A stretch of DNA of 64,000 nucleotides from Gammaproteobacteria bacterium (lineage in GTDB: Bacteria; Pseudomonadota; Gammaproteobacteria; Ga0077554; Ga007554): assembly GCA_023266055.1 (NCBI GenBank), contig JAHFRW010000003.1, positions 202 to 64,201 on the forward strand, given 5' to 3'. Every line of letters starts with the position of its first letter. Position 1 is the stretch's first letter. The notes below the pieces were generated by a model that saw nothing but the letters and a program-made list of their open reading frames with translations, had not been told where the DNA came from and did not search any database. Shown here in pieces: positions 12,257 to 32,931 of this stretch. A program made the position numbers and the translations under genes.

Positions 12257-12278
12257 GTATGCAGTGCCGTTTCAGTAA

Positions 12279-15059: not shown

Positions 15060-15095
15060 GGCGTCGCCGAATTCTGGCGATTTCTTCAGTAGTTA

Positions 15096-15158: not shown

Positions 15159-15168
15159 ATTTTCCTTC

Positions 15169-15258
15169 GAGCCTATTCAATATCTCGCTGAAGGGCGCAT
15201 CGCGGCGTTGGAAACCCTTCGCTTCGCTCTTCCCTTGATCGAGATATTGAATAGGCTC
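15169..15258. repeat. REP/MITE-like palindromic intergenic element, copy A
   Basis: GAGCCTATTCAATATCTCG...CGAGATATTGAATAGGCTC outer inverted repeats around a core ATCTCGCTGAAGGGCGC...CGCTCTTCCCTTGATCGAGAT that recurs at 45912-45974 (about 85% identity). Confidence 0.6.
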
Positions 15259-16638: not shown

Positions 16639-16998
16639 TAATTAAACGCTCCCTGCGTTGCCTGTAATCCGGGGTACGAAAGTAAAAAATCCATTTTTAA
16701 TCTTTTATTTATATGGTTCAATGCATTATTTTGCATAAAACGTCACCTGTAGCTGGCTGTGATCAGGTTTCACCAACGGCGTGGGGGCGTATGGTGATCG
16801 CCCGATTATCTATTCCTTATAATGTTGCTATAAATAGCAGCTATTTTCCAGTCATTTATTATACGGCATGCGGGGAACGGCCGAAAACAGGAGTTTTTTC
16901 GAGCAATGGGTTATTTGACTGATTTTAGGGGGTGTTGATGTTTTGGACGGGTGATCGTGCTTGCATCTTGACGTCTAAACATTGACACTTTCTGTCTG

Positions 16999-17649
16999 AT
17001 GCATACATTTCAGATTCATTTGGCTTCAACCTCACCACGGCGTCGAGCATTGCTCGATCAATTGGGGATACGTTATTGTGTCCAGCCGGTTGAAGTCGAT
17101 GAAACTTTACGTCTTCACGAGACGTCTGAACAGTACGTGCTGCGTCTGGCGCTTGCAAAGGCACGTGCTGGTTGGCAGGCGTGTAGCGCTAGCGCCCAGT
17201 CACTTTCTTCGATAACGGTTCCCGATAGCCAGATTTCGGCAACGTCCGGGTCTGCGCCACGGTGTCCGGTGCTGGGTGCGGATACGTCGGTCGTCATTGC
17301 GGGTGAGGTTCTGGGCAAACCCCGTGATCGTGAGGATGGTCTGGAAATGCTGGAACGATTATCTGGGTGCAGTCATCAGGTGATGACCGCAATAGCACTG
17401 GTAGAGGGCGCACGTGAAGCGACACGCCTGAGTGTAAGTACGGTAGTGTTTTGTACCACTACCCTGGCAGAGCGCGCCGCGTATTGGGAAACGGGTGAAC
17501 CGTTGGGCAAGGCGGGAGGTTACGCGATTCAGGGACGGGCAGCGGCGTTTATTACACGCCTGGAAGGCAGTTTTTCAGGTGTAATGGGTTTGCCGTTATA
17601 TGAAACGGCAGACATATTGAATGAATTTGGTATTGCCGTGCTGCGTTAG
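16999..17649 (+). CDS. maf: Maf-family nucleoside triphosphate pyrophosphatase (septum formation protein Maf)
   Basis: 216 aa; [12 protein letters not shown] motif; maf-rng-yhdP synteny. Confidence 0.88.
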
Positions 17650-19330
17650 CGCGTTATTTTTAATATTCAATAATTGGATACACGGGACGGCCAAGGTGAA
17701 TCAGGAAATTCTTATTAATGTAACACCTCGCGAAACACGGGTAGCCGTCGTAGAGAATGGTGTGTTGCAGGAAGTCTACATTGAGCGTACCGGGCGTCGT
17801 GGTTTGGTGGGTAACGTCTACAAGGGATGGGTGAGTCGTATACTGCCAGGTATGCAGGCGGCATTTATTGATATTGGCCTGGAACGTACCGCTTTTCTGC
17901 ACGCGTCTGATATTTCTGTCACGGTACCCGGGGAAGATCGGCGGGATAAGGTACAGGCTGCTGTGCATGATCCCATGACCGCTAATAATAGTGCGGTTGC
18001 ATGGGTTCATGATGTTGCGGACTGTGACACAGTATCTGGAGCGGTGATCGAGCAATCCGGGCAGTTACCAAAGGCGCCAGAAATTGTGTTGGAAGGAAAA
18101 AAAGAGCATTCGATTAATCATTTGTTGCGTGAAGGGCAGGATATATTGGTGCAGGTGGTGAAAGATCCATTAGGTACGAAAGGTGCACGTCTCACGACAC
18201 ATATTACCATTCCTTCGCGCTATCTTGTATTAATGCCGGATGTACATACAGTAGGGGTATCGCAGAAAATTGAAAGTGAAGAAGAGCGGCAACGTTTGAA
18301 AAATATTGTCACCTCGTTTATGACACCACCACCCGGTGATAGCAGAAATACCAGTGAAGGTTTTATTGTGCGTACTGCTGCCGAGGGGGTCACGGAAGAA
18401 GCCTTGCGAGCAGATATGGAATTTTTACGACGTGTGTGGGGATCGATTCGTCAGCGTATTCCTTCCATGGCAGCCCATACCATCGTGCATGAAGATTTAC
18501 CCTTGGCCTTGCGTATTTTGCGTGATCTTGTGGCAAGTGCGGTAGACAAGGTGCGTATTGATTCACGCGAAACCTATCAACGTGCTGTGCAGTTTGTTGA
18601 AAAATTTATACCTGATCTGGTGTCGCGTATTGAATATTATCCGGGTGAGCGCCCCATTTTTGATTTGTATTCCGTTGAAGACGAAATTCAAAAATCACTG
18701 GAGCGCAAGGTGCAGTTGAAATCAGGGGGTTATCTGATTATTGACCAGACTGAAGCCATGACAACGATTGATGTGAATACTGGTGCTTTTGTCGGCCATC
18801 GTAATCTTGAGGAAACCATTTTCAAAACCAACCTGGAGGCGGCACAGGCGATTGCACGGCAATTGCGCCTGCGTAATCTTGGAGGCATTATTATCCTTGA
18901 TTTTATTGATATGGTGGAAGAGGATCACAAGCGCCAGGTATTACGTGTTCTGGAGAAAAATATGGAGCGGGATCATGCCAAAACCTCCATCAGTGGGGTC
19001 TCGGCGCTTGGGTTGGTGGAAATGACGCGTAAACGTACCCGTGAAAGCCTTGCGCATGTATTGTGTGCACCGTGCCCGACCTGTGCCGGGCGTGGTCTGC
19101 TTAAGACACCGGAAACGGTTTGTTATGAGATTTTTCGGGAAATTCTCCGTTCGACGCGCCAATTTGATTCCAATCAATTATTGGTGCTGGCATCTCAGTC
19201 AGTAGTGGACGCGTTACTGGAGGAAGAATCTACCAGTATTGCAGAGTTGGAGGCCTTTGTCGGGAAGCCGATAAAATTCCAGGTGGAGGCATTGTATACG
19301 CAGGAACAATTTGACGTGGTGCCTGTGTAG
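17621..19330 (+). CDS. rng: ribonuclease G
   Basis: RNase E/G catalytic domain (S1 plus DNase I-like); six-frame ORF starts inside maf; a GTG start near 17696 ([18 protein letters not shown]) would give the canonical ~490 aa. Confidence 0.88.
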
Positions 19331-19376
19331 TGTCAATAGCGTGTTCAGTATATGTATATATAAATAGACGTTTTTT

Positions 19377-22300
19377 GTGAATTCTCTCCTGAGCAGTTTC
19401 CGATTCTTCAAGAAAGGCTGTAAATCCGCCGCGTGGCCAGTATTTGCGGGCCTGATAATTTTTGCTGGCATTGTCTTTACTCTCGTGCGACTTTGGTTGC
19501 CTGAGGCAGATCATTATCGTGCTGATATTGAGCGTTGGACCAGCGACTATATAGGGTTTCCAGTAACACTTGGTGCTATTCATGTCCGGTGGGACAGATT
19601 GCATCCACAGCTTGTTATCAAGGATGCTTGTCTCAGCAAAAAAGCCGGATCAAATGATGTAATGTGTGTCAAAGAGGTGCATCTTGCGCTTGATTTGTTG
19701 ACCCTCTTGAAGGGTGAGTCACCAGAGTTTGGTGATTTAACCCTGGTAGGCGTGAATATTTCTGTACTGCGTCGTGTTGATGGTAGTTTCGCAATTGTTG
19801 GTCTGGAGGATATGCCTGCCGATCCACATATGCAGGAATTGATGCAGCAATGGTTGATGAAACAGGATTATTTGATTATTAGAGATAGCCAGTTGCGCTG
19901 GCATGATGAGCGTAATGGACAGGTGCGGCAGTTCACACATGCGAATCTCGGATTGCACAACAAGGGCGATGCTCATTATCTGTCGGGAACGGTTTCCGTG
20001 GCGCCTGATCCTGCCACGAAAATAAAAATAATGCTTGATCTTCAGGGTGATATTTTTGGTTCGAGCGGCTGGTCAGGTAATGGGTATGTGGAGGGTGTTG
20101 CGGTTGATGTAGCCCAATGGTTGGCGGGGCGAGCGCTGGCAGGTGTCGAGGTTGATGCAGGACATGCTGATTTAAAAATCTGGGGTATCTGGGAGAATGC
20201 TCGTTTACAGCGAGTACGAGGTGAAGCGAAGCTGAGTCAATTACAACTTAAGAGTGCTGTGCAGCCATTGCTGGCCATGCAGGTCTTCACGGGACATTTT
20301 GACTGGCGTCGTCAGGCGCGGGGGTGGCGCCTGGATGCAGATCGCGTAACAGTAACGTATGCGGGTCATGCAAATGAAAAAGCGTCCGATAAAAAAATGG
20401 GGTTCCAGGTGGCTTTGTCTGAAGATGATGGCTCGTCTGTAATGGAGTTAGGCGCTCACCATATGCAATTGCAGGATGGTTTGGCGTTGGTGTTACTCAG
20501 TAATGTTATTGATGATACAACGCGGGAGGCGCTCACGGTAATGCGCCCAAGTGCGCAGCTTGATAAGACCTATATTCGTTATAACCACGACAAGGTGACT
20601 GGCAAGAATGCGTTTATTGCGCGTACTCGCTTTGATGATCTTGACGCGTCACGCTGGAAAAATCTACCAGGTATTACCGGGTTGGATGGTGTATTGCAGA
20701 TTAATGATCAGTCTGGTTCATTGATTCTGGATACGGCCGTGACACAGCTTGCCTTTGGTGATTTGTTTAGATCACCATTATCCATGAATACGTTAACCGG
20801 TGTTGTGGTATGGCAGCGTCAGGAAGGAATGTGGCGTATTCAGGCACATGAATTAAAAGTCGAAAATGCGGATATTGGTGGCTCGGTTAATGCGGTTATT
20901 GATCTTCCTGATGATGGAGGCTCTCCATTTGTTGACCTGGTCGCAGATTTTTCCAACGGTAATGTTGAACATGCAGCACGCTATTTTCCGGTGAGTATTA
21001 TGCCACAGGATACGATCACCTGGCTGGATCGCTCCCTGATAAGTGGTCAAGTTACGACAGGTCAGGCATTGTTTCATGGGCGTGTAGCAGATTTTCCGTT
21101 TGATGGCGGAACGGGGCGATTTGAAGTGCGGTTTAATGTTAGCGAAGGTGTTCTGGATTATGCTCCCGGTTGGCCGCGTCTGGAGAAAATAGCAACCGAA
21201 GTGGTATTTAGTGAGCGTCGTATGGATATCCATGCGGTGACAGCCCAAAGCCTTGCCTCGGACATCCGACAGGTTCATGCCTCTATTGAAGATCTGGATG
21301 GTAATCCAGCGCTGTTACGTATTAAGGGTAAGGCAGAAGGTCCGACAGCCGATGCCTTGCGCTATGTGAGGGAAAGCCCTCTGGATAAGGACATTGGCAA
21401 ATATTTTGGTAGTGCCCGTACGCAGGGTCGTAGTGCATTGAATCTGGCGCTTGACATACCGCTGACTGAAACTGCGACGAATCGTATCAAGGGCGCCCTG
21501 GATTTTAATAATAGCAGTCTGATTTTTACCGATACCGGTATGGATACGGGATCGGGGGGTGGCGTGGAATTATCCGCGATCAACGGTACTTTGAATTTTA
21601 CGGAAACATCGCTTGCAGCGCGTGATATTCGTGCTACGGTATTAGGGCAGAGCACGGGAGTTGACGTGATCACGGAAGCTGGAAAGGGTGGCGCGTTACG
21701 TTTTGAGGCACGTGGCCGAGTTGATACCCAGGTCTTGGCTCAATACGTGAAATCGCCTTTACTGGCTTATTTTTCGGGAGAATCGGGCTGGTTGGCCACT
21801 TTGCGGGTGGTTGATACGGACAAGGAAACGGTAAATGCTACATTGCGTATTGAATCACCACTAAAGGGTATGGTGGTGGCGCTGCCAGCACCCCTGGGTA
21901 AAACTGCCATGCAGCAACGTGGAATCGTTGTAGAAACGGTATTTCCGCGCACTGCCAGTACGCCTTTTAATGTAAAATACGGTGATTCCGTCAAAAGTGT
22001 GTTCAGTGTGGGCCATGACAATGTTCCCGATCGTGGTGAATTGCGTCTTGGTAATAGTGCAGGAGACAGTAATTTGACGCTTCCTGCGGCGCCTGGGTGG
22101 CGTGTTGCGGGGGAGTTACCCGAGTTTTCGGTGACGGAATGGTTGAATTTCATGGGTGCCGAGCCCCGAAATACTGCGTCACCCACGGCACCGCGCGTGA
22201 ACGATGTTGATGTGCGTATTGCTGCATTTGAGGCTTTTGGACATGCCTTGAAAAATGTTCAAATACAAGCCATAAATAATGTTCAGGAATGGGATGCAAC

Positions 22301-23261
22301 CATTACCAGTCCCAAAGTGAGTGGCAGATTGCGGCTGCCACATGCTGCATCTGCCCCGGTAACGGCTGATTTTGATTATATTGAGCTGGCCAGGGGGGGC
22401 GATAAAAATCGTGATGCGGGCGATTACACCCCTGATCCGTACCAGATTCCGCCGTTGCGTATTACAAGTAAGCGGTTTTCATATTATGGAATGAATCTGG
22501 GTAGTTTGAGTCTCATTACCTCACCGCAACCTGCCGGTTTGCATGTGGATAGCCTGCAAATAGTATCAGGTGCGACACAAATTACCGGATTGGGCGATTG
22601 GACTGTGGGTAAGCAGGGACAGAATTCATCATTCAATCTGACGATTAACAGTAACAATCTTGGCAAAACCTTTCGTGAGTTTGGTTTTGCTGATACCTTT
22701 GCCGAAGGATATGGGCGTGTCGATCTGATGGCTCATTGGCCATCGGCCCCTGCGGCGTTTACACTAGGGCAATTGCAGGGTAATTTACGCATGAATCTCA
22801 AAAAAGGCAGATTACTGGATGTTGATCCCGGCGCTGGGCGATTATTTGGTTTAATGGCCCTGAACTTCAAGGGATTGTTTAGCAAGGGTTTCAGTTTTGA
22901 TGATATTTCCGGAGATTTTGCCATTACGGATGGTAATGCCTATACCTCTAATTTGACCATGGTTGGCCCCTCGGCACAGGTTGCCGTACAGGGTCGAGTA
23001 GGTTTGGCCGCTAGAGATTATGATCAAAGTATTACGGTGACACCACGCTCGTCATCCGCCTTGCCTTTGGCGGGTGTATTGACGGGGGGGCCAGGATTGG
23101 GAGCGGCGATATTCCTGTTTCAGAAATTATTTCAGTCAGAGCTTGACCGGATTACACGTTATCAATATACCGTCAAAGGTGCATGGGATAACCCCGAATT
23201 TGATTTGTCATCCAAAGATAAGGAAACACCGCCGGCGGATGCCGTGACGGGACCACGATAG
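19377..23261 (+). CDS. yhdP: YhdP-family AsmA-like protein (inner membrane to outer membrane phospholipid transport bridge)
   Basis: 1294 aa; N-terminal TM anchor; size and position immediately after rng match yhdP. Confidence 0.8.
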   Translation: MNSLLSSFRFFKKGCKSAAWPVFAGLIIFAGIVFTLVRLWLPEADHYRADIERWTSDYIGFPVTLGAIHVRWDRLHPQLVIKDACLSKKAGSNDVMCVKEVHLALDLLTLLKGESPEFGDLTLVGVNISVLRRVDGSFAIVGLEDMPADPHMQELMQQWLMKQDYLIIRDSQLRWHDERNGQVRQFTHANLGLHNKGDAHYLSGTVSVAPDPATKIKIMLDLQGDIFGSSGWSGNGYVEGVAVDVAQWLAGRALAGVEVDAGHADLKIWGIWENARLQRVRGEAKLSQLQLKSAVQPLLAMQVFTGHFDWRRQARGWRLDADRVTVTYAGHANEKASDKKMGFQVALSEDDGSSVMELGAHHMQLQDGLALVLLSNVIDDTTREALTVMRPSAQLDKTYIRYNHDKVTGKNAFIARTRFDDLDASRWKNLPGITGLDGVLQINDQSGSLILDTAVTQLAFGDLFRSPLSMNTLTGVVVWQRQEGMWRIQAHELKVENADIGGSVNAVIDLPDDGGSPFVDLVADFSNGNVEHAARYFPVSIMPQDTITWLDRSLISGQVTTGQALFHGRVADFPFDGGTGRFEVRFNVSEGVLDYAPGWPRLEKIATEVVFSERRMDIHAVTAQSLASDIRQVHASIEDLDGNPALLRIKGKAEGPTADALRYVRESPLDKDIGKYFGSARTQGRSALNLALDIPLTETATNRIKGALDFNNSSLIFTDTGMDTGSGGGVELSAINGTLNFTETSLAARDIRATVLGQSTGVDVITEAGKGGALRFEARGRVDTQVLAQYVKSPLLAYFSGESGWLATLRVVDTDKETVNATLRIESPLKGMVVALPAPLGKTAMQQRGIVVETVFPRTASTPFNVKYGDSVKSVFSVGHDNVPDRGELRLGNSAGDSNLTLPAAPGWRVAGELPEFSVTEWLNFMGAEPRNTASPTAPRVNDVDVRIAAFEAFGHALKNVQIQAINNVQEWDATITSPKVSGRLRLPHAASAPVTADFDYIELARGGDKNRDAGDYTPDPYQIPPLRITSKRFSYYGMNLGSLSLITSPQPAGLHVDSLQIVSGATQITGLGDWTVGKQGQNSSFNLTINSNNLGKTFREFGFADTFAEGYGRVDLMAHWPSAPAAFTLGQLQGNLRMNLKKGRLLDVDPGAGRLFGLMALNFKGLFSKGFSFDDISGDFAITDGNAYTSNLTMVGPSAQVAVQGRVGLAARDYDQSITVTPRSSSALPLAGVLTGGPGLGAAIFLFQKLFQSELDRITRYQYTVKGAWDNPEFDLSSKDKETPPADAVTGPR

Positions 23262-23298
23262 TCGCTAACATTAAAATAAAAGGAAGGATGCCAGCCTG

Positions 23299-23592
23299 AT
23301 GCATTTTTTTAATTTACATTCCTGTTTCGCACGGATCCATCTGTTGTTGGCAGGTGTGTTTTTTATCCCTGTGGTTTGTCTGGCAACAGACGGATTGCCG
23401 GGTCAAGAGAATGCTGCTATGGCATCAAGTATAAGTGTCGGGCAATGGAGTGCGCCACGTAGTGGTGAAGCAGTACTCGCGTTTTCTGAGTTACGGGGGG
23501 TAATGGAAGAAATTATTCAACAGTCCGACAAAAGTATCATGCTGCATTATCCTCAGGGCGAGCGTGGCAAGGCATGGGGGGAAGTTGCGTGA
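23299..23592 (+). CDS. hypothetical secreted/lipoprotein-like small protein
   Basis: 97 aa with N-terminal hydrophobic signal (LLLAGVFFIPVVCLA); overlaps next ORF in another frame, so possibly one gene with a frameshift. Confidence 0.3.
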   Translation: MHFFNLHSCFARIHLLLAGVFFIPVVCLATDGLPGQENAAMASSISVGQWSAPRSGEAVLAFSELRGVMEEIIQQSDKSIMLHYPQGERGKAWGEVA

Positions 23593-23788
23593 TTGGTTAG
23601 TGACTCTGGGGTTGCCATCGAGTCGTATTCAACTGATGCCGGGTAATGCCGGTGATATGGTTAAGGTGATGCAAGTGGCCACCACACAACGTCAGAGTGA
23701 CTGGCAAAATGCCATGCCGCAACCCGTGGTAGAGTCATTTCAAATTCAGGAAGCTACGGATATTACCGATGGAGTGGAGATACCATGA
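23564..23788 (+). CDS. hypothetical small protein (possible continuation of the preceding ORF after a frameshift)
   Basis: 74 aa ORF; stop overlaps the start of the C-N hydrolase gene (ATGA). Confidence 0.25.
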   Translation: MARHGGKLRDWLVTLGLPSSRIQLMPGNAGDMVKVMQVATTQRQSDWQNAMPQPVVESFQIQEATDITDGVEIP

Positions 23789-24603
23789 GCCAGGTTGCCG
23801 CTATTCAAATGGCTTCAGGGCCCAATATCAGTGCCAACTTACTGGAAGCTTCACGGCTGATCAGCCGTGCCGCGGCTGCGGGTGCAGGGTTGGTCGTGTT
23901 GCCTGAAAATTTTGCCCTGATGGGTATGAGCGAATTTGACAAAGTGAGAATTCGTGAACCGGATGGCAGTGGGCCAATACAGGAGTTTTTGGCGTATCAG
24001 GCCACAAGAAACGGCGTGTGGCTGGTAGGTGGTACGATTCCGCTGATAGCTACCCATAGTCAGAAAGTACGCGCCGCCTGCTTGGTATTTGATCCCACAG
24101 GCACACGTGTTGCGCGTTATGACAAGATCCATATGTTTGATGTGCGCGTGACAGAAAGTGGCGAGAATTATACCGAATCTGACACCATAGAAGCGGGGGA
24201 TACACCGCTTGTGCTTGATACTCCGTTCGGAAAATTGGGATTGGCTGTATGCTACGACCTGCGTTTTCCAGAGCTTTTTCGGCAGTTACTCGAGAAGGGC
24301 GCGGAAGTGCTTGTCATACCGTCGGCCTTTACCGCCATTACGGGTAAGGCACATTGGGAAATTCTGGTACGTGCCCGAGCGATAGAAAATCTGTGTTATG
24401 TTGTCGCAGCAGCGCAAGGTGGCTATCATCTTGGGGGGCGTGAGACCCACGGTGATAGCATGATTGTTGGCCCATGGGGTGTGATATTGGACCGGTTGCC
24501 GCGTGGCTCAGGTTTTATAAGTACGGAAATCGATCATAATAGCCTGGAAAGCATGCGCCGCAATTTTCCGGCAACACAGCATCGTCGTTTGGGGTGCACT
24601 TGA
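23785..24603 (+). CDS. carbon-nitrogen hydrolase family protein (Nit/omega-amidase-like)
   Basis: 272 aa; nitrilase-superfamily pattern (E...K...C triad context VCYDLRFPE); conserved position between yhdP and tldD as in Pseudomonas. Confidence 0.85.
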   Translation: MSQVAAIQMASGPNISANLLEASRLISRAAAAGAGLVVLPENFALMGMSEFDKVRIREPDGSGPIQEFLAYQATRNGVWLVGGTIPLIATHSQKVRAACLVFDPTGTRVARYDKIHMFDVRVTESGENYTESDTIEAGDTPLVLDTPFGKLGLAVCYDLRFPELFRQLLEKGAEVLVIPSAFTAITGKAHWEILVRARAIENLCYVVAAAQGGYHLGGRETHGDSMIVGPWGVILDRLPRGSGFISTEIDHNSLESMRRNFPATQHRRLGCT

Positions 24604-24794
24604 ATTATCGCATTGGAATCCCGAAGTATGAATAATGCAGAATGGGTTGCCGCAAGGCCTGATAACATGCAAAGAGGTCAAAAAAATTGATGGGCAGGAG
24701 TATACGGCTATCAAAAATCTCTAGCGCCAGCCGGATGCCGAAAAATTGACAAAAAATCATTCCACGCACAGAACATGCGATTGACTCAGGAGAT

Positions 24795-26249
24795 ATGCAT
24801 CACACCATGAATACATCACTTGATATTGCCCGTCAGTTGATTCTGACTCCTTCTGGATTAGCAGAAAAAGACCTGCATAATGTGCTTGAGCAAGTGCTGA
24901 GCCATGCTGTCGATAGTGCCGATCTTTACTTTCAGAATACCCATTTTGAATCCTGGTCGCTGGAGGATGGTATCGTCAAGGAAGGTAGCTACAGCATAGA
25001 CCGTGGTGTGGGTGTGCGTGCCATCAGTGGTGAAAAAACCGGATTTGCCTATTCTGATGACATCGCCTTGCCTGCGTTGACTCAGGCTGCACACGCGGCT
25101 CGGGCCATTGCGCGCAGTAGCGGTCAAGGTCGGGTCAATGTCAGGCCAGGCATACAAGGGCGCGAATTATATCTTTCTGTTAATCCGTTACAAACACTGG
25201 CAGAGCAGGATAAGGTAAGTTTGCTGGAATCATTGGATGCCGAAGCACGCAAGCAAGATCCACGCGTCAAACAGGTGATGGTAAGTCTTGCGGGTAGCTA
25301 CGATGTGGTGATGGTTGTGGGCAGTGATGGCACATTGGCGGCCGATATGCGTCCACTGGTGCGATTGAATGTCAGCGTTATTGTCGAGCACAATGGCCGC
25401 CGTGAGCAAGGTTCCTCCGGTGGTGGCGGACGGGTAGGGTACGATTATTTTCTGCAAAATGATCGTGGTCTGGGCTATGCACATGAAGCGGTGCGTCAGG
25501 CACTGGTTAATCTGGATGCGCGTAATGCCCCTGCGGGAACCATGCAAGTAGTATTAGGGCCGGGCTGGCCCGGCATTTTGCTGCATGAAGCAATTGGTCA
25601 CGGCCTGGAAGGGGACTTTAACCGCAAGGGTACCTCTGCTTTTGCAGGACGTGTCGGTGAAAAAGTGGCGTCGGAACACTGCACTGTTGTGGATGACGGA
25701 ACACTTGACAGCCGTCGAGGTTCCTTGAATATTGATGACGAAGGCACGCCCACGCAATGCACGGTGCTGATTGAGAATGGCATACTCAAAGGCTACATGC
25801 AGGACAAGATGAATGCTCAATTAATGGGTGTTGCGCCCACTGGTAATGGGCGTCGTGAATCCTATGCGCATCTGCCCATGCCACGCATGACCAACACCTA
25901 CATGCTGGCGGGGAAACATGACCCACAGGAAATCATCGCCTCGGTTAAAAACGGGTTGTATGCCGTAAATTTTGGTGGGGGGCAGGTTGATATCACGTCC
26001 GGTAAATTCGTGTTTTCGGCAAGCGAAGCCTATATGATTGAGAACGGTAAAATTACTTACCCTGTCAAAGGTGCAACACTGATTGGCAATGGCCCTGATG
26101 TATTGACCCGTGTTGCCATGGTAGGTAATGACCTGAAACTGGATACAGGTGTAGGTACATGTGGGAAGGATGGACAGAGTGTACCTGTAGGTGTTGGCCA
26201 GCCAACCTTACGCATAGATGGATTGACGGTGGGGGGAACCAGTGCCTAA
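24795..26249 (+). CDS. tldD: metalloprotease TldD
   Basis: 484 aa; conserved TldD sequence ([19 protein letters not shown]...[11 protein letters not shown]). Confidence 0.92.
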
Positions 26250-26319
26250 GCGTTCATATTGGATTTCGATAACGATTTTGATCTGAAACGATTTTGATCT
26301 GATATGGCGCCCAGGGTTT

Positions 26320-26847
26320 CTATTCACCGATGACCTCTCTTAAATAGCGAAATAGGGTACGTGCGCTACTGGGTGGTTTACCGGCTTTGGACTCACGTTC
26401 GGCATTGCGAATTAATTGGCGCAAGTGCTGGCTGTCAGCCGCAGGGTACTCGCCGAGAAATTCGCTCACCGCCGTATCGCCTTCGCTGAGCAGTTGGTCG
26501 CGCCAGCGTTCCAGGCGATGGAAATGCACAGCGGCATGTTGACCATGATTGTGCAGTGCGTCGAGTGCTGCCTGAATCGGGGTGGCGTCGATTTTGCGCA
26601 TGACCTTGCCAATGTATTGTAACTGGCGCTTGTGCGCGCCACGTTCGGTAATGGTGCGTGCAGCCATGACTGCATTGAGCAGGTTTTCCGGCATGGGGAC
26701 CGTGTTCAATTGGCTGGCAGGGAGCTTCACCAAAGCCTCGCCCAACTCTTGCAAGGCGGTCATATCGCGCTTGAGTTGGGATTTGCTTTTCTGTTCGGGG
26801 TCTGTATCTTCAAAGGTGTCTTCAGTGGACATGGGCCGGATTATCAA
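26320..26847 (-). CDS. yjgA: ribosome-associated protein YjgA/DarP (DUF615)
   Basis: 175 aa; divergent from pmbA exactly as yjgA-pmbA in enterobacteria; charged helical protein. Confidence 0.8.
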   Translation of the reverse strand: MIIRPMSTEDTFEDTDPEQKSKSQLKRDMTALQELGEALVKLPASQLNTVPMPENLLNAVMAARTITERGAHKRQLQYIGKVMRKIDATPIQAALDALHNHGQHAAVHFHRLERWRDQLLSEGDTAVSEFLGEYPAADSQHLRQLIRNAERESKAGKPPSSARTLFRYLREVIGE

Positions 26848-26876
26848 AAAGTTAATGAGATTAGAGAGTATTCACA

Positions 26877-28229
26877 ATGCCACAGATTACAGCGATAGAC
26901 AACTTAACGCCAAATAATACCCAGCTTCAAGATCTGGTGCATAGCATGCTCGCCGAAGCGCGGACCCAAGGTGCCAGTGCTGCTGAAGTCGGAGTCAGTA
27001 TAGAAACCGGCTTATCCGTTAATGTTCGTTTGGGCGAGGTTGAGACGCTCGAATATAACCGTGACAAGGGTTTAGGTGTTACCGTGTATTTTGGCCAGCG
27101 TAAAGGGTCAGCCAATACCTCTGATTTTACACCAGAAGCAATGCGTGAGACAGTGCGCGCCGCGTGTGGTATCGCAAAATATACCGCTGCGGATGAATAT
27201 TCGGGCCTTGCGGATGCTCAGTTGATGGCACGTGACATTCCTGACCTTGATTTGTGTCACCCCTGGGGTATCAACGCAGAACAGGCGATCGAGCTGGCGA
27301 GTGAGTGTGAAGGCGTTGCACGCAGCATGGATACCCGTATCACCAATTCCGAGGGCGCCAGCGTCTCCAGTCATGAAGGTTACCGTGTGTATGGTAATAG
27401 TCACGGTTTTATCGGTGCCTATCCCAGCACCCGGCACAGTTTAAGCTGTGCCGTCATCGGTGGTGAAGGTGAGTCCATGCAGCGCGATTACTGGTTTAGC
27501 GTTGCACGTAACAGTGCCGATCTTGATTCGGCGACAGAGGTGGGGCGCCGTGCTGCTGAGCGCACGCTACGCCGTCTGAATGGCCAACGTTTATCTACCC
27601 GTCAGTCGCCGGTGATTTTCTCTGCTGAGGTTGCGACTGGCTTGCTGTCGCATTTCATTAGCGCGATTCGTGGTGGTGCATTATACCGTAAGGCGACGTT
27701 CCTGCTTGATCATTTGGGCAAGCCGATATTTCCTGATTTTGTACATATTCATGAAGCACCGCATATCAGGAAAGGCTTGGGCAGCGCTCCGTTTGATAGT
27801 GAGGGTGTGGCGACGTGCGTGCGTGATATAGTGAGTGAGGGTGTGTTGCAAAGCTATGTTCTTGATGCCTACGCAGCTCGCAAACTCGGCATGCAGACTA
27901 CGGGTAATGCGGGTGGTGTGCATAACCTGATTATTGATTCAGGCAAGCTTGACTTGAAGGCATTGCTGAAACATATGGACAAGGGTTTGCTGGTCACCGA
28001 GTTGATGGGGATGGGTATTAATATCGTTACGGGTGATTACTCGCGTGGTGCCGCCGGTTTCTGGGTGGAACATGGTGAAATTCAATATCCAGTAGAGGAG
28101 ATTACCATTGCGGGTAACTTGCGTGATATCTTCATGAGCATCATCGATGTCGGTACTGATATCGAACGTCGTGGCAGTATACATACAGGATCAATTTTAG
28201 TACGGGAAATGACTATTGCTGGTGAGTAA
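26877..28229 (+). CDS. pmbA: metalloprotease PmbA (TldE)
   Basis: 450 aa; TldD/PmbA family, partner of tldD. Confidence 0.9.
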   Translation: MPQITAIDNLTPNNTQLQDLVHSMLAEARTQGASAAEVGVSIETGLSVNVRLGEVETLEYNRDKGLGVTVYFGQRKGSANTSDFTPEAMRETVRAACGIAKYTAADEYSGLADAQLMARDIPDLDLCHPWGINAEQAIELASECEGVARSMDTRITNSEGASVSSHEGYRVYGNSHGFIGAYPSTRHSLSCAVIGGEGESMQRDYWFSVARNSADLDSATEVGRRAAERTLRRLNGQRLSTRQSPVIFSAEVATGLLSHFISAIRGGALYRKATFLLDHLGKPIFPDFVHIHEAPHIRKGLGSAPFDSEGVATCVRDIVSEGVLQSYVLDAYAARKLGMQTTGNAGGVHNLIIDSGKLDLKALLKHMDKGLLVTELMGMGINIVTGDYSRGAAGFWVEHGEIQYPVEEITIAGNLRDIFMSIIDVGTDIERRGSIHTGSILVREMTIAGE

Positions 28230-28276
28230 TTCTGTGTGCGCCAGTGAATGTCGTCATGGCATAAGGAAGCCTTTTA

Positions 28277-28921
28277 ATGGGAAACCTTTTCGGGATGGAA
28301 CAAGGTCTGATCTGGCTTTCGTTTATACTGCTGACGGGTTATCATGCCCACCTGATATACCGGGTGAAACATAAGCCCCTGACCACTACCATTGGGTTAA
28401 ACATCCAGGTGCGTCGCGCCTGGGTCGAAACCATTATGGAAGACCGGCTCGATATTCTGGCGGTACAGACTTTACGTAACTGGAGCATGGCGGCCAGTTT
28501 TCTTGCAACTACCGCGATCCTGATCTGTCTCGGTACACTTAATGCCGCGTTTGTTTCAAGTAGTAGTGGTGGCTTACGGGTTATTTCTGAGCTCAGTCAT
28601 GAAGGTAATGGATTACTGCAATTAAAACTACTATTATTGATTATTGTATTTTTCTTCGCCTTTTTTAACTTTTCGCTCGCTATCCGTTCCTACAATCGCA
28701 CTGGCTTCATGATTAATATCCCGCTGGCGCGCGCCCCCTTGATGACGCCGGATTTTGTTGCGCGTGTATTAGGACGTGGCATGAATCATTATTCACTCGG
28801 CATGCGTGGCTATTATCTTTCTGTGCCCTTGGTGTTATGGCTATTTGGCCCGTATTGGCTGGCGGCAGGCACAGTAGTGTTATTATTTGTGATGTATAAT
28901 ATAGATTATAGTCTGGATTGA
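28277..28921 (+). CDS. uncharacterised polytopic membrane protein (possibly DUF599-like)
   Basis: 214 aa, 4-5 predicted TM segments; first gene of the low-GC accessory stretch after pmbA. Confidence 0.5.
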   Translation: MGNLFGMEQGLIWLSFILLTGYHAHLIYRVKHKPLTTTIGLNIQVRRAWVETIMEDRLDILAVQTLRNWSMAASFLATTAILICLGTLNAAFVSSSSGGLRVISELSHEGNGLLQLKLLLLIIVFFFAFFNFSLAIRSYNRTGFMINIPLARAPLMTPDFVARVLGRGMNHYSLGMRGYYLSVPLVLWLFGPYWLAAGTVVLLFVMYNIDYSLD

Positions 28922-28991
28922 TTGTCTACGAAAAATGGCCTGGCTTGATAGCGTGCCCTGATAAGCCAACAGTGGTTTCACGTCATTGTAT

Positions 28992-29573
28992 TCAGGTTGA
29001 GAGTAACCGCCTTCGATACGCAATCATCAATATCAGCAGCAGGCATGCCAAGGCTATGACGGCAGGAAACAAAACCGTTGTCAGCGAATAGTGTTCCAAT
29101 GCCATAATCACGAGGCTATTGCGTGCCATAAACAGCATAAAAAACGATAATTGTTCATCAAAAGGAAAGTGGTATGCCTTTCTGAACGTTGGCGCAAACC
29201 CAAAAATATCCACTATGGTCAATATGATCACTGCCCATAATGGGTCAGAGGTGAAATACCAGAATGGCAAGGAGGACATTGCTGCCAGGAAGAAAACCCA
29301 GTCGGTCTTGGTGATGGTAATATCCGATCTTTTTATAAACGCAAGTACCGCAACATATATGGTAATAATGCCTGACACGCCTATTGGCCAGGCACCTGCG
29401 CCACCATCATCTTCGAGTTGCGCCAGAAAAACAATGAATGTAGTCGAACCCCAAATAACCCATGAAAAAACATGCGGCCTGATTTTTTCCTGCATGATTG
29501 AGCGTATATAGGGGAAAAAAGCAATAAATGTGAGTGCAATGGCAATTACACTGAGTAGCTCTTTATAGGCCAT
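28992..29573 (-). CDS. uncharacterised 6-TM membrane protein with internal 3-TM repeat (PQ-loop/SemiSWEET-like)
   Basis: 193 aa; two similar halves each with a F/LP(Y/F)(I/W) motif at the end of the first helix (FFPYIRS..., SLPFWYF...); AT-rich codon usage unlike flanking core genes. Confidence 0.55.
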   Translation of the reverse strand: MAYKELLSVIAIALTFIAFFPYIRSIMQEKIRPHVFSWVIWGSTTFIVFLAQLEDDGGAGAWPIGVSGIITIYVAVLAFIKRSDITITKTDWVFFLAAMSSLPFWYFTSDPLWAVIILTIVDIFGFAPTFRKAYHFPFDEQLSFFMLFMARNSLVIMALEHYSLTTVLFPAVIALACLLLILMIAYRRRLLST

Positions 29574-30003
29574 GGTTTGAGATTTTTACCTTTGGGTGAT
29601 TCCTCCAGTATAATAAAAATTTACCGATTTTGGGAGGCATGTCTTCTGGTGTGTCTGTATATAGTGCGATTTTCCAGGCTATTCAAAACGCCAGCATATC
29701 ATGGCTGCTGTTCTATCCTGAAGCCCGAGCTTTAATCTTCCAGGCGACGGTGTCCTGTAGGGTTATTACAGTCGAAGGAATCGTTATACCAAACAAAGGG
29801 TGTCGAGATTGAAGTTCTTTGACGCACATTTACATGTGACGCTGACTTGGAAAGAGTCAAGAGTTGCGAAGTCCTGGGTGGCGCTATTGTTTCAGCGGCG
29901 CCTTTGAGAGTTTAGGGGCAGGCCGTACGTTTGACATTTAGGCCAAATGCAACCGTGTCAAATGTAAGGCCTGGCCCCTGATGTTTGTGTTGCAAAAGGA
30001 CGG

Positions 30004-30828
30004 CTACGTTCCTATTTTTGGCGTCTGACCTGCAAGGTGGTTTTTTACATACAGGGCTGCGGAGCGAATTTCTGCATAGAACCACGGAACCTCGCATGTT
30101 GGTGTAGATGATAATTGCAGTATCTCTGCCTCAGTTTTATACAGAAAAGATACCCAGTTGTTTGTTAGCAAATTAGCCTCTGCAACAAGGAGCTTTATTT
30201 CCTCTATTGTAAATGGCGTACCTCTGTGGTGAAGCTTTACAGGAGGTGTTACCTGAAGACCAAATACACAGTACAGTATCTGAAGCCCACCCGTTGGGTC
30301 GCGGTCTGAAAGAGTAAGGTCAAATGAGTCATTACTAACGGTCATAGTAATAAGATCAATGCCGTAGGTTCCTCTATTATCTTCCTGTGGATTACCCAGG
30401 CCAAGTGCCAATGCTACATTTTCAATCGAAAATGTAGCATTGGCACTGACTGTACTCGTTCTGTTTTTCTCAATCCATGCAAGCAGTGTCTCAGAGTTTG
30501 TCTGGGAGGCTTCGGCATTAGAGGGATTAGCCCCTTGGGCAAAGATGTTTACTGAGCCGACAAATGTTTTGTTCACAATCTCGAAGAACGTTTCAAACCT
30601 CTCAGTACGGCTAAGGTGAGTAAGCGCCACGATGGGGTTGCTATCAGCGTCAAGCCCCTCTACCACCACTATGATGCATGATGTGGCGCTATCCGAGTAT
30701 AGGTATTTTTCGGGATTATTAACGTCAGGTTTATTAAGGTTTGCGATATAGTAGTTGTCTTGGTCGATATAATAAAAGCCCTCTGGTATGGGTAAATTAC
30801 GCTTCCTATCATTAAATTTAAATTTCAT
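30004..30828 (-). CDS. uncharacterised soluble Asn/Ser/Thr-rich protein (islet gene, no recognisable domain)
   Basis: 274 aa; low GC (about 42%), no TM segments or signal peptide; co-oriented 430 bp upstream of the 6-TM protein gene. Confidence 0.55.
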   Translation of the reverse strand: MKFKFNDRKRNLPIPEGFYYIDQDNYYIANLNKPDVNNPEKYLYSDSATSCIIVVVEGLDADSNPIVALTHLSRTERFETFFEIVNKTFVGSVNIFAQGANPSNAEASQTNSETLLAWIEKNRTSTVSANATFSIENVALALGLGNPQEDNRGTYGIDLITMTVSNDSFDLTLSDRDPTGGLQILYCVFGLQVTPPVKLHHRGTPFTIEEIKLLVAEANLLTNNWVSFLYKTEAEILQLSSTPTCEVPWFYAEIRSAALYVKNHLAGQTPKIGT

Positions 30829-30869
30829 CTTATTTCTCCCTTATTCGATTAAAGTAGCGTTTATGTAAG

Positions 30870-31043
30870 GCGGGTTCTACCCATCAGATATAGCGACCGA
30901 GATCAACCTTTCCATCAGAGCCAGCATGCCGTGTGGGTAATCTTTCAGTAATCGCTTGAATGCGTAGCAGAAGGCATCGACAGTGGCCTCTGTCGATGGT
31001 GTAGGGGCATCGTTACTCTGCGCAATGGTTTTTACCCGTGACG
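30870..31043 (-). pseudogene. start-less C-terminal gene fragment beside tRNA-Thr (possible decayed integrase/transposase remnant)
   Basis: minus-strand frame reads PESSRVKTIAQSNDAPTPSTEATVDAFCYAFKRLLKDYPHGMLALMERLISVAISDG* and is preceded by an in-frame stop. Confidence 0.25.
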
Positions 31044-31491
31044 ACTCCGGTTAGTCGTGTTAGGGAAGCTCTGATTTATTCCTTCATGTCATTTCGACCG
31101 CAGGGGGAAATCTTTTACCATGCTGATTTTATTGATTTTATAAGTAACAGATTTCTCGCTAATGCTCGAAATGACAAATTATTCAGAGGTTCCTTAGAGC
31201 ATACCGACATGCGCATGATATAGAAGATGTCGAAGTAGATTTGGATCAATGACGTGGGCTGTTACACATTTTGTCTACACGTGTGCTCCCCCGCACACCT
31301 TCCGACAAAACAGGGAAACCTCGGCTATCCGGGGGGTGCCCGCCACCGCTCGCTTTAGGCGCCTTTGAGTTTAAAACGTCCAGTTCCTATTGCAAATTGT
31401 CAAAAATGATTATATATGACCATCTTCAGCACACGATCCACCCTGCATGCAGGGGGCCGAGCTTAAAAACTCTGATCACAAAACTTTAAAA

Positions 31492-31567
31492 TGGTGCCGG
31501 CGGAGGGAATCGAACCCCCGACCTACTGATTACAAATCAGTTGCTCTACCAACTGTGCTACGCCGGC
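31492..31567 (-). tRNA. tRNA-Thr (anticodon UGU)
   Basis: 76 nt cloverleaf: acceptor GCCGGCG/CGCCGGC, D-arm GCAC..GAGC, anticodon stem ACTGA/TCAGT with loop TTTGTAA, 5-nt variable loop, T-arm GGGGG-TTCGATT-CCCTC, CCA encoded. Confidence 0.85.
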
Positions 31568-31666
31568 GGGTGCGTATGGCGAAAAATACCCGTAATATTC
31601 TCAGTATTTTATATGATGCAGTAAAGCAGTCCGCTATTTTAAGGCAAGGCGCTGCGTAAGGCAATT

Positions 31667-32161
31667 TCAATTATTGGATATTGGGTCGCATGTATGGGGT
31701 TGTTGCTGAATATTGCCAAATGTGCTGATCAGGGTTTGCCATAAGGGCTCGGATACCGGGGGGGGCGGTTGTGCGGGGTTGCTGCCTATATCCAGCCAGT
31801 GTTCGGGGTTGTCGAGCGTTCCACCGGCACGCAGGCGAGGGATGAATTGTTCCATTTCTTCTAGCAGGGTACTGGCGCGTTGGGCCTCTTGTGCGGTAAT
31901 GAATGGGCCTATCGTATAACATGGCAGGGTGGGTGCAACGGTAGCCGGGGGGGGCTGTAAAGTGTTGTCTCCTGCGGTGCTTGCATTTCCGGGGAGGGTA
32001 GTGGGACGGATTTCGCGCAATAATACCAAGGATTTGATGCTGTTGTCGGGAGGCAATGCAAGCGCGGTGGTGGAATGTGCTTCACCCGATTTCTGTACGC
32101 TGTATTGCCAGATGAAAAATCCCGTGTTTAATAGTAGTAGTAAGGCAAACAACCATCTCAT
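31667..32161 (-). CDS. SPOR-domain-like membrane-anchored protein
   Basis: 164 aa; N-terminal TM helix, Pro-rich linker, C-terminal SPOR-like CYTIGPFITAQEAQRASTLLEEM; position after coaX as in many gammaproteobacteria. Confidence 0.5.
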   Translation of the reverse strand: MRWLFALLLLLNTGFFIWQYSVQKSGEAHSTTALALPPDNSIKSLVLLREIRPTTLPGNASTAGDNTLQPPPATVAPTLPCYTIGPFITAQEAQRASTLLEEMEQFIPRLRAGGTLDNPEHWLDIGSNPAQPPPPVSEPLWQTLISTFGNIQQQPHTCDPISNN

Positions 32162-32931
32162 TATGTATTTTCCGTAGCAAAAATGGCCAGACCTTGTAAT
32201 ACAAGTGTGGGTTCGTGGCGATACCGACCTGCCAATAATGGTAGCAGGGTCGTCGTATCGCCACCAGTGATGACGCGTGTCATGTTTTTACCTAATTCGG
32301 TGGCAAGGTCTGTCGTTACGCGGTCTATGACCGAGATGGCAGTATAAAGGGTGCCACCGTTGACACCGCCTTGTGTGTCACGCGCCAAAATGGCACAAGA
32401 TTGGTTTTCATCATCCATTTTGCCATCGATGTCCTGAGTGTTTGCCAGTAATGTGCGGCGCATCATGGTCAGGCCAGGTACAATCAATCCCCCTTGATGT
32501 TCGCCGGACGCTGTCAGAATGTCTATGGTAATGGCTGTGCCGCAATCAATCACGCACACGGGGCCTTTGACGTTACGGTGTGCGGCAATCATGGCTGCCC
32601 AGCGATCCGCCCCTAATTTTTGCGGGTCGAGATAGGCGTTGTGTATGCCACATGCTGCGTGTTGGGGGGTCATGAATTCGGTATCAATATTCCACGTTTG
32701 TCTGATCCAGCCAGACAAACTATTGGCAAAGTCAGGCCCGGCAACATTGGCGACGACTACACGAGCAGGGGGTGGTTGTGTAGACCAGTGTTGTGCAGCA
32801 AAAGCATCGAAATGGTCTTTGGTGTGTGTGTCCTGGTGTGATGCTTGCCCGGCATTATCCAGCACACCCTGGGCAAGTGTTGCCCATTTGATGCGGGTAT
32901 TTCCGGCGTCCATTACTAAAATTGTCATCAA
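32161..32931 (-). CDS. coaX: type III pantothenate kinase
   Basis: 256 aa; N-terminal LVMDAGNTRIKWA ASKHA-fold motif; birA-coaX synteny. Confidence 0.88.
   Translation of the reverse strand: MMTILVMDAGNTRIKWATLAQGVLDNAGQASHQDTHTKDHFDAFAAQHWSTQPPPARVVVANVAGPDFANSLSGWIRQTWNIDTEFMTPQHAACGIHNAYLDPQKLGADRWAAMIAAHRNVKGPVCVIDCGTAITIDILTASGEHQGGLIVPGLTMMRRTLLANTQDIDGKMDDENQSCAILARDTQGGVNGGTLYTAISVIDRVTTDLATELGKNMTRVITGGDTTTLLPLLAGRYRHEPTLVLQGLAIFATENT

Follow-up and report, generated by a model that had tools for sequence, protein, structure and literature searches.

The window, by which we mean the whole stretch of 64,000 nucleotides analyzed here, contains between 28230 and 31491 an interval of lowered GC content that adjoins the 3' end of a threonine tRNA gene. 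It holds three protein-coding genes, together with the remnants and smaller features listed below.

28277 to 28921, plus strand: DUF599 membrane protein, 214 aa, lineage backbone (PF04654, E 7e-61)
28992 to 29573, minus strand: membrane protein, 193 aa, seven predicted helices, solitary gene (AF2, homologue search)
29635 to 31491, no strand: variable (accessory) segment of ~1.86 kb (breaks in collinearity with relatives)
29914 to 29979, minus strand: long, imperfect hairpin that follows the stop codon of the amidase gene at a distance of 25 nt (MFE)
30004 to 30828, minus strand: intact, orphan gene for a 274-aa NTAN1-family Cys/His/Ser amidohydrolase, a predicted N-terminal-Asn deamidase (PF14736, AF2, Foldseek)
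30404 to 30447, no strand: perfect palindrome of 20+4+20 nt within the amidase coding sequence, in the codons for SANATFSIENVALA
30829 to 30876, minus strand: 5' leader with a good Shine-Dalgarno sequence, AAGGGAG, and a 7 nt spacer to the ATG (read from the sequence)
30877 to 31050, minus strand: start-less ORF remnant of 57 codons (translation)
31176 to 31252, plus strand: probable remnant of the C-terminus of a tyrosine integrase, frameshifted, weak evidence (alignment to the L137 integrase)
31492 to 31567, minus strand: tRNA-Thr(UGU), its 3' end being the right-hand edge of the variable segment (ARAGORN; Rfam tRNA, 72 bits)

The three reading frames, the spacing of 430 bp between the two minus-strand genes, and the tRNA-Thr (tgt), located by ARAGORN and Rfam with its 3' end next to the interval, are as the first-pass annotation had placed them. 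The dip in GC that it reported is real and was overstated in size, being 45% against 51-55% and not 40-45% against 55%. The GC content of 28230-31491 is 0.449 compared with a window mean of 0.5085, which lies in the lowest 0.6% of equal-sized windows. GC3 is 0.493 for the DUF599 gene and 0.485 for the 193-aa gene, and the core genes tldD and pmbA have values of 0.48-0.49. As the GC3 of the two membrane-protein genes equals that of core genes, their low overall GC can be attributed to the amino acid content of membrane proteins. The 274-aa gene, with a GC3 of 0.418, is the only one of the three that is atypical at synonymous sites, and this check of codon composition agrees with the accessory origin suggested for it.

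Comparison with related genomes places the boundaries of the variable DNA. The DUF599 gene is syntenic with pmbA in the relative L050 (93% amino acid identity), which is collinear with the window over 20979-29634 at 94.6% nucleotide identity and unrelated beyond; the contigs of this close relative (L050/L136) both end inside the interval. On the other side, the relatives L137 and L138 carry the orthologous tRNA-Thr and are collinear with the window as far as 31485 and 31480, i.e., 7-12 bp past the tRNA 3' end, beyond which they hold an ICE or unrelated genes. In L137, the ICE sits at the orthologous tRNA-Thr and includes an integrase, a TraI_2 relaxase, and a TraG-type coupling protein. Content varies among relatives from the tRNA 3' end, as in tRNA-integrated islands. 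The variable DNA extends from about 29635 to 31491, with the 3' end of tRNA-Thr(UGU) as its right-hand edge, and the DUF599 and 193-aa genes are lineage backbone beside pmbA. The proposal of foreign DNA at the tRNA-Thr 3' end therefore holds, but for ~1.86 kb and not for an islet of 3.2 kb, which had taken in two shared backbone genes with core-like GC3.

Beside the tRNA, a frameshifted stretch of ~30 codons at 31176-31252 (KLFRGSLEHTDMRM / IEDVEVDLDQ*) shows a collinear alignment with the L137 integrase at residues 276-306, with a linked E value of 0.029 within 892 nt, a small search space; Pfam detects nothing in it. The L137 integrase has the same position and orientation beside its orthologous tRNA-Thr. 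The start-less fragment described earlier is present as weak debris only, comprising this integrase-like stretch and the 57-codon ORF at 30877-31050, for which we found no Pfam match, no plasmid tblastn match, and no similarity to the partner families A1, A2, and ASPG introduced below. Direct repeats of ≥12 nt flanking the segment, which could represent att repeats, were not found; the 24-mer of the tRNA 3' end has no second match at up to 3 mismatches, and the sole other match of its 16-mer is the T-arm of a tRNA-Ser. The segment resembles tRNA-associated islands and ICEs in that variable DNA begins within 7-12 bp of the tRNA 3' end, a possible, weakly supported integrase remnant lies beside the tRNA, and the cargo gene has an atypical GC3, but it differs in the absence of an intact integrase, a flanking att repeat, and mobility genes. 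Given its length of ~1.9 kb and its single intact gene, it appears to be a relic rather than a functional island. An element probably integrated at the tRNA-Thr 3' end and was then eroded, leaving a weak integrase-like remnant and debris with no att repeat, and 29635-31491 would accordingly represent its decayed remnant. The integrase-like remnant reads towards the tRNA 3' end.

The 193-aa membrane protein belongs to a large uncharacterized family of >3,596 homologues. The best 120 of these share 72-100% identity and carry no Pfam domain, and the protein itself has no Pfam match above noise and no PDB sequence match. It had been described as having six transmembrane helices in two similar halves of three. 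The AF2 model (pLDDT 62.8) instead predicts seven helices, hhalign of the halves gives a probability of 0.2%, and no internal repeat is found; the best Foldseek match of this low-confidence model has an E value of 3.6. The protein is similar in helix number and small size to the seven-helix PQ-loop/SWEET transporters (3+1+3), and the P-Y and P-T motifs with which its helices 1 and 5 end resemble PQ-loops, which serves as a lead only. Assignment to this clan is not supported, as the two homologous triple-helix bundles of those transporters were not detected and there was no Pfam match, no PDB match by sequence or fold, and no similarity between the halves.

The 274-aa protein is an NTAN1-family cysteine amidohydrolase, as judged from both family and fold. 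Its score with PF14736 (N_Asn_amidohyd) is 26.7 bits, the gathering cut-off being 24; this match is barely over threshold and covers mainly residues 17-86. When compared with human NTAN1 by phmmer, its DSATSC and STPxxExPWF motifs both align, corresponding to the catalytic site and the C-terminal lid, respectively. The AF2 model (pLDDT 92.3, pTM 0.90) shows an alpha-beta-beta sandwich of the CNF1/YfiH-like type with an appended C-terminal lid, as supported by Foldseek and HMMER. The best six Foldseek matches in the PDB are all human NTAN1, at E values of 8e-13 to 1e-11 and TM scores of 0.60-0.63 over 275-294 columns, the top one having E 7.8e-13 and TM 0.61. We collected 79 homologues, most of which carry a precomputed PF14736 assignment, and a profile built from the bacterial proteins finds the canonical PF14736 proteins of 300-330 aa, which themselves score 136-264 bits. 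The protein had first been taken to contain no recognizable domain and to be assignable to no known family; the PF14736 score and the Foldseek result overturn both statements, and a confident match to an enzyme family had been named beforehand as an outcome that would count against an undescribed system.

These assignments bear on the claim that the 193- and 274-aa genes form a two-gene defense, abortive-infection, or effector-immunity module acquired together. The genes are neighbors with the same orientation on the minus strand, 430 bp apart, and lie in a low-GC stretch beside a tRNA, and neither protein has a characterized bacterial function. However, a homologue of the 193-aa gene occurs in none of 47 other NTAN1-like loci, an NTAN1-like gene occurs in none of six neighborhoods of 193-aa homologues, and the two are found together in the window's own population only. 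The 193-aa gene is solitary in those six unrelated contexts, and the family sizes differ ~45-fold (>3,596 versus 79 homologues). The breakpoint of the 95%-identical relative L050 separates the two genes, lying 61 bp upstream of the start of the 193-aa gene, and their GC3 values are unlike (0.485 versus 0.418). A search of PADLOC-DB gave no match at E ≤ 1 for the 214-, 193-, and 274-aa proteins. We consider such a module extremely improbable; its appearance results from adjacency and low GC, in a region where two of three genes are low in GC through membrane-protein composition. The interval is instead probably composed of three mutually unrelated parts, namely lineage backbone genes, the eroded stump of an element at tRNA-Thr, and a lone gene for an NTAN1-family amidohydrolase.

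The conservation of active-site residues allows the function of the 274-aa protein to be considered further. The catalytic triad of human NTAN1 is Cys75/His92/Ser69 (PMC7022378), and these positions correspond to Cys51/His71/Ser45 here; across bacterial and canonical members, no variation is seen at C51 and H71, and S45 is nearly invariant. In the human enzyme, Glu260 and Thr73 (here E246 and T49) bind the free alpha-amino group, with Glu260 forming a salt bridge to it; Thr74 and Thr255 (S50 and S241) bind the Asn side chain, and Gln51 and Ser254 (Q23 and S240) bind the peptide backbone (PMC7022378). Among these, E246, T49, S240, and Q23 are invariant across kingdoms, and the substitutions at S50 and S241 appear conservative. 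Residues D46, S47, A48, T49, S50, C51, H71, S240, T242, P243, and E246 are invariant in 23 bacterial homologues, and Y20, Q23, A48, T49, C51, H71, G99, S240, P243, and E246 are invariant across bacterial and canonical PF14736 proteins. By alignment, both the triad and the residues that bind N-terminal Asn are therefore kept, and the predicted substrate would be Asn with a free alpha-amino group, as found at the N-terminus of peptides and proteins. Hydrolysis of its side chain amide through a thioester at Cys51 could then yield N-terminal Asp and ammonia.

Another reading would place the protein with deamidase toxins or effectors of the CNF1/BLF1/CheD/XopAK type, which modify Gln or Asn residues inside a target protein. 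CheD (PDB 2F9Z) is the next PDB match after NTAN1 (E 5.7e-4), and a faint match to XopAK is seen (E 0.086; 12 bits, where the cut-off is 150). The core beta-sandwich and Cys-His dyad are shared with CheD and with CNF1/YfiH-like hydrolases (CNF1, BLF1, and YfiH). However, the CheD match covers only about 150-175 residues, at a TM score of 0.33 normalized to the query, and NTAN1 matches nine orders of magnitude better. The targets of CheD, CNF1, and BLF1 are internal Gln residues, and these enzymes have no C-terminal lid, whereas the window protein keeps both the NTAN1-specific lid, which excludes internal residues (PMC7022378), and the Glu that binds the alpha-amine. With no secretion signal, immunity-like neighbor, or toxin-delivery domain, a toxin is very unlikely.

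The genomic context of bacterial relatives adds to this picture. An NTAN1-like gene in bacteria is usually one of a cluster of two to four genes for amide hydrolases, and 42 of the 47 other loci carry A1, A2, and/or ASPG nearby. This set comprises an Ntn hydrolase of the C45/AAT type, an asparaginase-like protein whose C-terminal extension may be a lectin-like tail, and an unnamed protein in which Cys, His, and Asp residues are invariant. Fusions also occur, joining A1 to the NTAN gene (P0216) and A1 to A2 (L049). The recurrent neighbors are A1, A2, ASPG, LysR, HxlR, rSAM-SPASM, and an ABC exporter. No description of this conserved four-enzyme cluster was found in the literature searched, and it may define a new pathway.

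It could be speculated that the protein acts as a true N-terminal amidase of the bacterial Leu/N-degron pathway, in which Asn would be converted to Asp, leucylated by a Bpt-type enzyme, and degraded by ClpS/ClpAP. The protein conserves the full set of NTAN1 residues that recognize a free N-terminal Asn, among them the lid Glu that forms a salt bridge with the alpha-amine; the predicted chemistry would be the first step of the eukaryotic pathway, and the protein has no signal peptide and is therefore cytosolic. Against this, the family is rare and patchy, with 86 representatives among 1.84 billion, unlike a component of housekeeping proteolysis, and its neighbors are amide hydrolases, LysR/HxlR regulators, an rSAM-SPASM enzyme, and ABC exporters, with no ClpS, Aat, or Bpt among the recurrent neighbor families scanned in the 47 loci. 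Aat and Bpt are also absent from the ten window ORFs scanned, which span 204-426 aa, a range above the size of ClpS (~100 aa). Bacterial N-degron pathways are not known to have tertiary residues (Graciet et al. 2006; reviews by Varshavsky). Such a role is thus unlikely, and a role in which Asn-bearing peptides are processed or catabolized may tentatively be preferred to phage defense, at low certainty. In the Leu/N-degron scheme, Asn would be a tertiary destabilizing residue in bacteria.

The window contains no A1, A2, or ASPG partner, and orphan loci are a minority (5 of 47, some being contig-end artifacts). Homology to the closest locus, that of a Gallionellaceae MAG (L004), covers the amidase gene and its 48 bp leader only: L004 6973-7806 matches window 30876-30036 at 82% in blastn, the leader at 30829-30876 being the last homologous stretch. 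The window may therefore have received or retained the last gene of a cluster alone, with 48 bp of leader. This truncation, the debris around the gene, and the absence of a sigma-70-like promoter between it and the tRNA would fit a functionless cargo gene on its way to loss, the only ORF to survive in an island that is being eroded, now separated from the operon that it needs. With no such promoter and without its usual partners, the gene may be inactive or unexpressed here. However, the ORF is full length with all invariant residues intact, its dN/dS against L004, averaged over both lineages, is 0.14, three contigs of separate datasets encode an identical protein, and the same-strand tRNA gene upstream could supply read-through transcription. 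We therefore give the cargo explanation a low probability. The stop codon of the ORF remnant at 30877-31050 adjoins the end of the L004 homology.

The 274-aa protein adds a new member to a known enzyme family, the bacterial branch of which is uncharacterized. It shares with eukaryotic NTAN1 (PF14736; PDB 6A0E/6A0F/6A0H/6A0I), the protein N-terminal asparagine amidohydrolase that turns an N-terminal Asn into Asp, the fold and C-terminal lid, the triad, the residues that recognize N-terminal Asn, a cytosolic location, and a similar size. It differs in having 274 rather than about 310 aa, without the first ~28 residues, in an unlike middle region, in an identity of only 18-20% to the human protein, and in its rare, patchy bacterial distribution. 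Eukaryotic NTAN1 works in the ubiquitin/N-degron pathway, whereas the bacterial relatives elsewhere lie in an amide-hydrolase operon. N-terminal amidases are regarded as eukaryotic inventions. It is possible, if doubtful at present, that bacteria own a true N-terminal asparagine amidase, a horizontally spread NTAN1 orthologue that is usually found in an undescribed operon of four amide hydrolases and of which the window carries an orphaned yet active copy. If so, the operon could add an Asn tertiary tier to bacterial N-degron proteolysis or form a new step of N-terminal maturation or catabolism acting on Asn-bearing peptides. With all substrate-reading residues preserved, this bacterial branch provides a simple way into experiments through a single soluble protein of 274 aa. 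It also bears on the origin of NTAN1, the human sequence of which was reported to resemble no known eukaryotic or prokaryotic protein (PMC7022378).

Two structures in and around the amidase gene may be added. The region 29890-30010 has an MFE of -41.4 kcal/mol (z -3.5 compared with shuffles), and the hairpin that it contains at 29914-29979 is possibly a transcript-end structure; it has no U-tract and was not called as an intrinsic terminator. The palindrome at 30404-30447 is a quasi-palindrome only in relatives, and the differences found in the window are clustered there, every one of them perfecting the palindrome.

We lean, with somewhat better than even confidence, toward reading the interval between pmbA and tRNA-Thr(UGU) as one that contains an eroded tRNA-Thr island with an orphaned, probably still functional, predicted N-terminal-Asn amidohydrolase of the NTAN1 family, beside two unrelated backbone membrane-protein genes. 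The features concerned are as follows.

Features of the pmbA to tRNA-Thr interval
28229: stop of pmbA, left edge of the interval
28277-28921, plus strand: DUF599 gene, 214 aa, intact ORF
28992-29573, minus strand: gene for a 193-aa membrane protein, intact ORF
30004-30828, minus strand: 274-aa amidase gene, intact ORF
30877-31050: start-less 57-codon ORF, no match
31176-31252, plus strand: frameshifted integrase-like stretch reading KLFRGSLEHTDMRM/IEDVEVDLDQ*
31492-31567, minus strand: tRNA-Thr(tgt)

The 274-aa protein, which the first-pass annotation described as having no recognizable domain, does carry one: it scores 26.7 bits against Pfam family PF14736, "Protein N-terminal asparagine amidohydrolase," above the gathering threshold of 24. 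A phmmer search of PDB sequences returns human NTAN1 as the sole match, with SDSATSCIIVV of the 274-aa protein aligned to SDDATTCHIVV of NTAN1 and, in a separate second motif, LSSTPTCEVPWF aligned to LSTSPLAEPPHF. A confident AlphaFold2 model built with 23 homologues as input (pLDDT 92.3, pTM 0.90) retrieves human NTAN1 as all of its top six Foldseek matches in the PDB (E 7.8e-13 to 1.2e-11, TM 0.60-0.63, about 280 columns), and the chemotaxis deamidase CheD comes next (E 5.7e-4). A role as a deamidase toxin appears very unlikely.

The functional residues of the human enzyme can be placed on this alignment. In NTAN1, Cys75, His92, and Ser69 form the catalytic triad, Glu260 makes a salt bridge to the N-terminal amine, Thr73, Thr74, and Thr255 grip the amine and the Asn side chain, Ser254 and Gln51 bind the peptide backbone, and mutation at most of these positions abolishes activity (PMC7022378). 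The 274-aa protein has C51, H71, and S45 as its triad, E246 for Glu260, T49, S50, and S241 for the three threonines, and S240 and Q23 for Ser254 and Gln51. When bacterial members are aligned with canonical 300- to 330-aa PF14736 proteins, Y20, Q23, A48, T49, C51, H71, G99, S240, P243, and E246 are invariant. From these residues, we infer that the enzyme would recognize asparagine whose alpha-amino group is free and turn it into aspartate.

The bacterial NTAN1-like family is rare, patchy, and mostly accompanied by other genes. It comprises 79 clusters at 90% identity, its profile matches 86 representatives among 1.84 billion, with canonical NTAN1s in the lower ranks, and a genome scan found 46 loci with NTAN1-like genes, in Gallionellaceae, Colwellia, Pseudoalteromonas, Maribacter, Desulfoluna, Pseudomonas, Leisingera, Stappia, Propionispira, Lachnospiraceae, Bacteroidales, Saccharibacteria, and others. 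When neighboring ORFs were clustered into partner families, at least one of three, here called A1, A2, and ASPG, was present in 42 of 47 loci, forming a cluster of two to four genes in many phyla (loci L003-L049; for example, L043, 7123-11341, and L007, 8001-11983). A1 (33 loci) starts with MCTIG, bears the PF03417/C45 (C45/AAT-type) Ntn-hydrolase signature, and weakly matches PDB entry 3GVZ. In ASPG (23 loci; L043, 8905-10491; L003, 6265-7974), the N- and C-terminal domains of an asparaginase are followed by about 150 further aa, which include a QxDxNxVxY motif like that of bulb lectins (MQDDGNLVFY); Pfam B_lectin reaches just E 0.078. A2 (20 loci; about 270 aa; L004, 6052-6897; L043, 10523-11341) contains several invariant Cys, His, and Asp residues within the motifs NNCYxY, GHxVAL, WPGDYHWxRxD, and WSQKDGxDQVTNFDFAG. 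As it has no Pfam or PDB match yet so many invariant residues, its sequence suggests an undescribed Cys/His/Asp hydrolase. The WPGDYHW motif presumably resembles the "WDYHV" motif of NTAQ1 (formerly WDYHV1); a PDB profile search gave neither NTAQ1 nor any other significant match, so that an NTAQ1-like enzyme is unsupported at the sequence level.

A functional link between the partners is supported by two fusions, A1-NTAN in protein P0216 and A1-A2 in locus L049 (8698-10248). In certain Lachnospiraceae loci (L017, L026, and L031, about 9700-11430), the NTAN1-like/Ntn-hydrolase pair is followed by a gene for a radical-SAM/SPASM enzyme and, in L026 and L031, also by one for a small uncharacterized protein. 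At other loci, there is an adjacent ABC exporter (for example, L015, 1122-2906). Such neighbors hint at a peptide-maturation (RiPP-like) context. Since every operon partner at other loci is an amide hydrolase, apart from the occasional RiPP-like enzyme or exporter, a possible role is the processing or breakdown of peptides that bear Asn. An N-degron role would be chemically attractive, but the neighborhoods lend it no support, and the partners Aat and Bpt were absent among ten scanned ORFs of the window (204-426 aa); we regard it as unlikely. The searchable literature yielded no description of bacterial NTAN1 homologues or PF14736, nor of the amide-hydrolase cluster around them, and the four-gene cluster, which lies outside the window, is apparently undescribed. 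What remains is one more bacterial protein in an established enzyme family and a lead to that cluster.

The copy in the window is an orphan. With all proteins of the three partner families as tblastn queries, A1, A2, and ASPG are absent from the window. At the closest locus, L004 of a Gallionellaceae MAG, the NTAN1-like gene is 82% identical in nucleotides and 84% in amino acids and has an A2 gene directly upstream; DNA homology to the window is limited to 30036-30876, that is, the gene and a 48-bp leader. The ORF of the window gene is intact and preceded by a good Shine-Dalgarno sequence, and its dN/dS against the closest homologue is 0.14; that it is functionless cargo seems improbable. Within its coding sequence, 30404-30447 forms a perfect palindrome of 20+4+20 nt, where the homologues in L004, L003, and L005 have only a quasi-palindrome; the clustered substitutions and a 6-nt insertion in the window all perfect the palindrome and keep the reading frame, a pattern that suggests mutation by template switching (quasi-palindrome correction).

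The 193-aa gene is not a partner of the amidase. A homologue is missing at all other NTAN1-like loci, and its own homologues stand solitary in six contexts, near MerR, OsmC, GFA/radical-SAM, DinB/SMR, and RecN/thioredoxin genes. The proposal of a novel two-gene, defense-like module thus loses its basis, and a PADLOC scan for defense systems was empty; of the four alternatives weighed, this one is the least credible, ranked below a toxin and, further up, cargo, all being less likely than an orphaned enzyme. The protein has more than 3,596 homologues, the best 120 of which are 72-100% identical and lack any Pfam domain, and the family (proteins P0080-P0199) is unusually conserved, at 72-84% identity across Gallionellaceae, Methylococcales, and Ca. 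Manganitrophaceae. Its genes often lie among small stress or detoxification genes; judged from neighboring genes only, we would guess at a small membrane protein linked to solutes or stress. It had been described as a 6-TM protein built from two similar halves; a low-confidence AlphaFold2 model (pLDDT 62.8) has seven helices, and no similarity between halves was detected. A PQ-loop/SWEET-like internal duplication was likewise set aside, with neither fold nor sequence match to this poor model and its protein in the PDB.

Composition separates the amidase gene from its neighbors. The GC dip of the interval is real, at 0.449 against 0.5085 window-wide and among the lowest 0.6% of equal-sized windows, but smaller than first claimed. 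GC3 of the DUF599 (0.493) and 193-aa (0.485) genes equals that of the core genes tldD (0.482) and pmbA (0.490), so that their AT-richness stems only from encoding membrane proteins; the 274-aa gene stands at 0.418. Over 28000-32200, including the 430-bp spacer, Rfam finds the tRNA alone, other matches falling far under gathering scores and giving no riboswitch or ncRNA, and predicted intrinsic terminators and promoters do not exceed counts in shuffles. Just 3' of the amidase stop lies an imperfect, stable hairpin (29914-29979; MFE -41.4 kcal/mol for 29890-30010, z -3.5) with no U-tract and only a spurious sub-threshold miRNA match in Rfam.

Comparison with relatives sets the boundaries. Contig L050 of the closest relative (94.6% nucleotide identity) runs collinear with window positions 20979-29634 and is unrelated beyond, the break lying 61 bp upstream of where the 193-aa gene starts. 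On the right, relatives L137 and L138 share birA, coaX, a 164-aa ORF, and tRNA-Thr with the window (pyrC in L137 only), and their collinearity breaks off at 31485 and 31480, beyond the 3' end of the tRNA by 7-12 bp. These breakpoints delimit a variable segment of about 29635-31491; the proposed islet at the tRNA 3' end is thus right in kind, but spans 1.9 kb instead of 3.2 kb and is a relic. Past the orthologous tRNA-Thr(UGU), L137 carries an integrative conjugative element (10565-20459: integrase, TraI_2 relaxase, DsbC-like, SLT, and TraG/TrwB-type genes), which makes this tRNA a hot spot for integration within the lineage; L138 has unrelated genes there. The 80 metagenome loci of PmbA relatives are only 59-72% identical, and in all of them DUF599, the 193-aa gene, NTAN, coaX, and birA are missing downstream, a result that does not bear on close relatives.

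Within the segment, the stretch at 31176-31252 gives one weak, linked tblastn alignment, to the C-terminal 30 residues of the L137 integrase, and is oriented to the tRNA as that integrase is; Pfam is silent on it. The 57-codon ORF gave nothing in Pfam, plasmid tblastn, or comparison with the partner families, and no att-like repeat of the tRNA 3' end was found. Both contigs that border the interval in the assembly of the closest relative (SRR22387985) break off here (L050 1-194; L136 3762-3901), one 194 bp past the breakpoint and beginning with a 24-nt palindrome, the other inside the tRNA, as would fit DNA that is repeated or varies between strains at this site. A GC-rich element of about 55-65 nt with the core ...CGCCGCACATGGATGTGC... 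recurs at 85-92% identity in the window (42011-42063, 50588-50646, and 56918-57035) and in relatives (L137, 9198-9263 and 17167-17220; L138, 9168-9226); it is possibly an interspersed repeat of the REP or MITE type.
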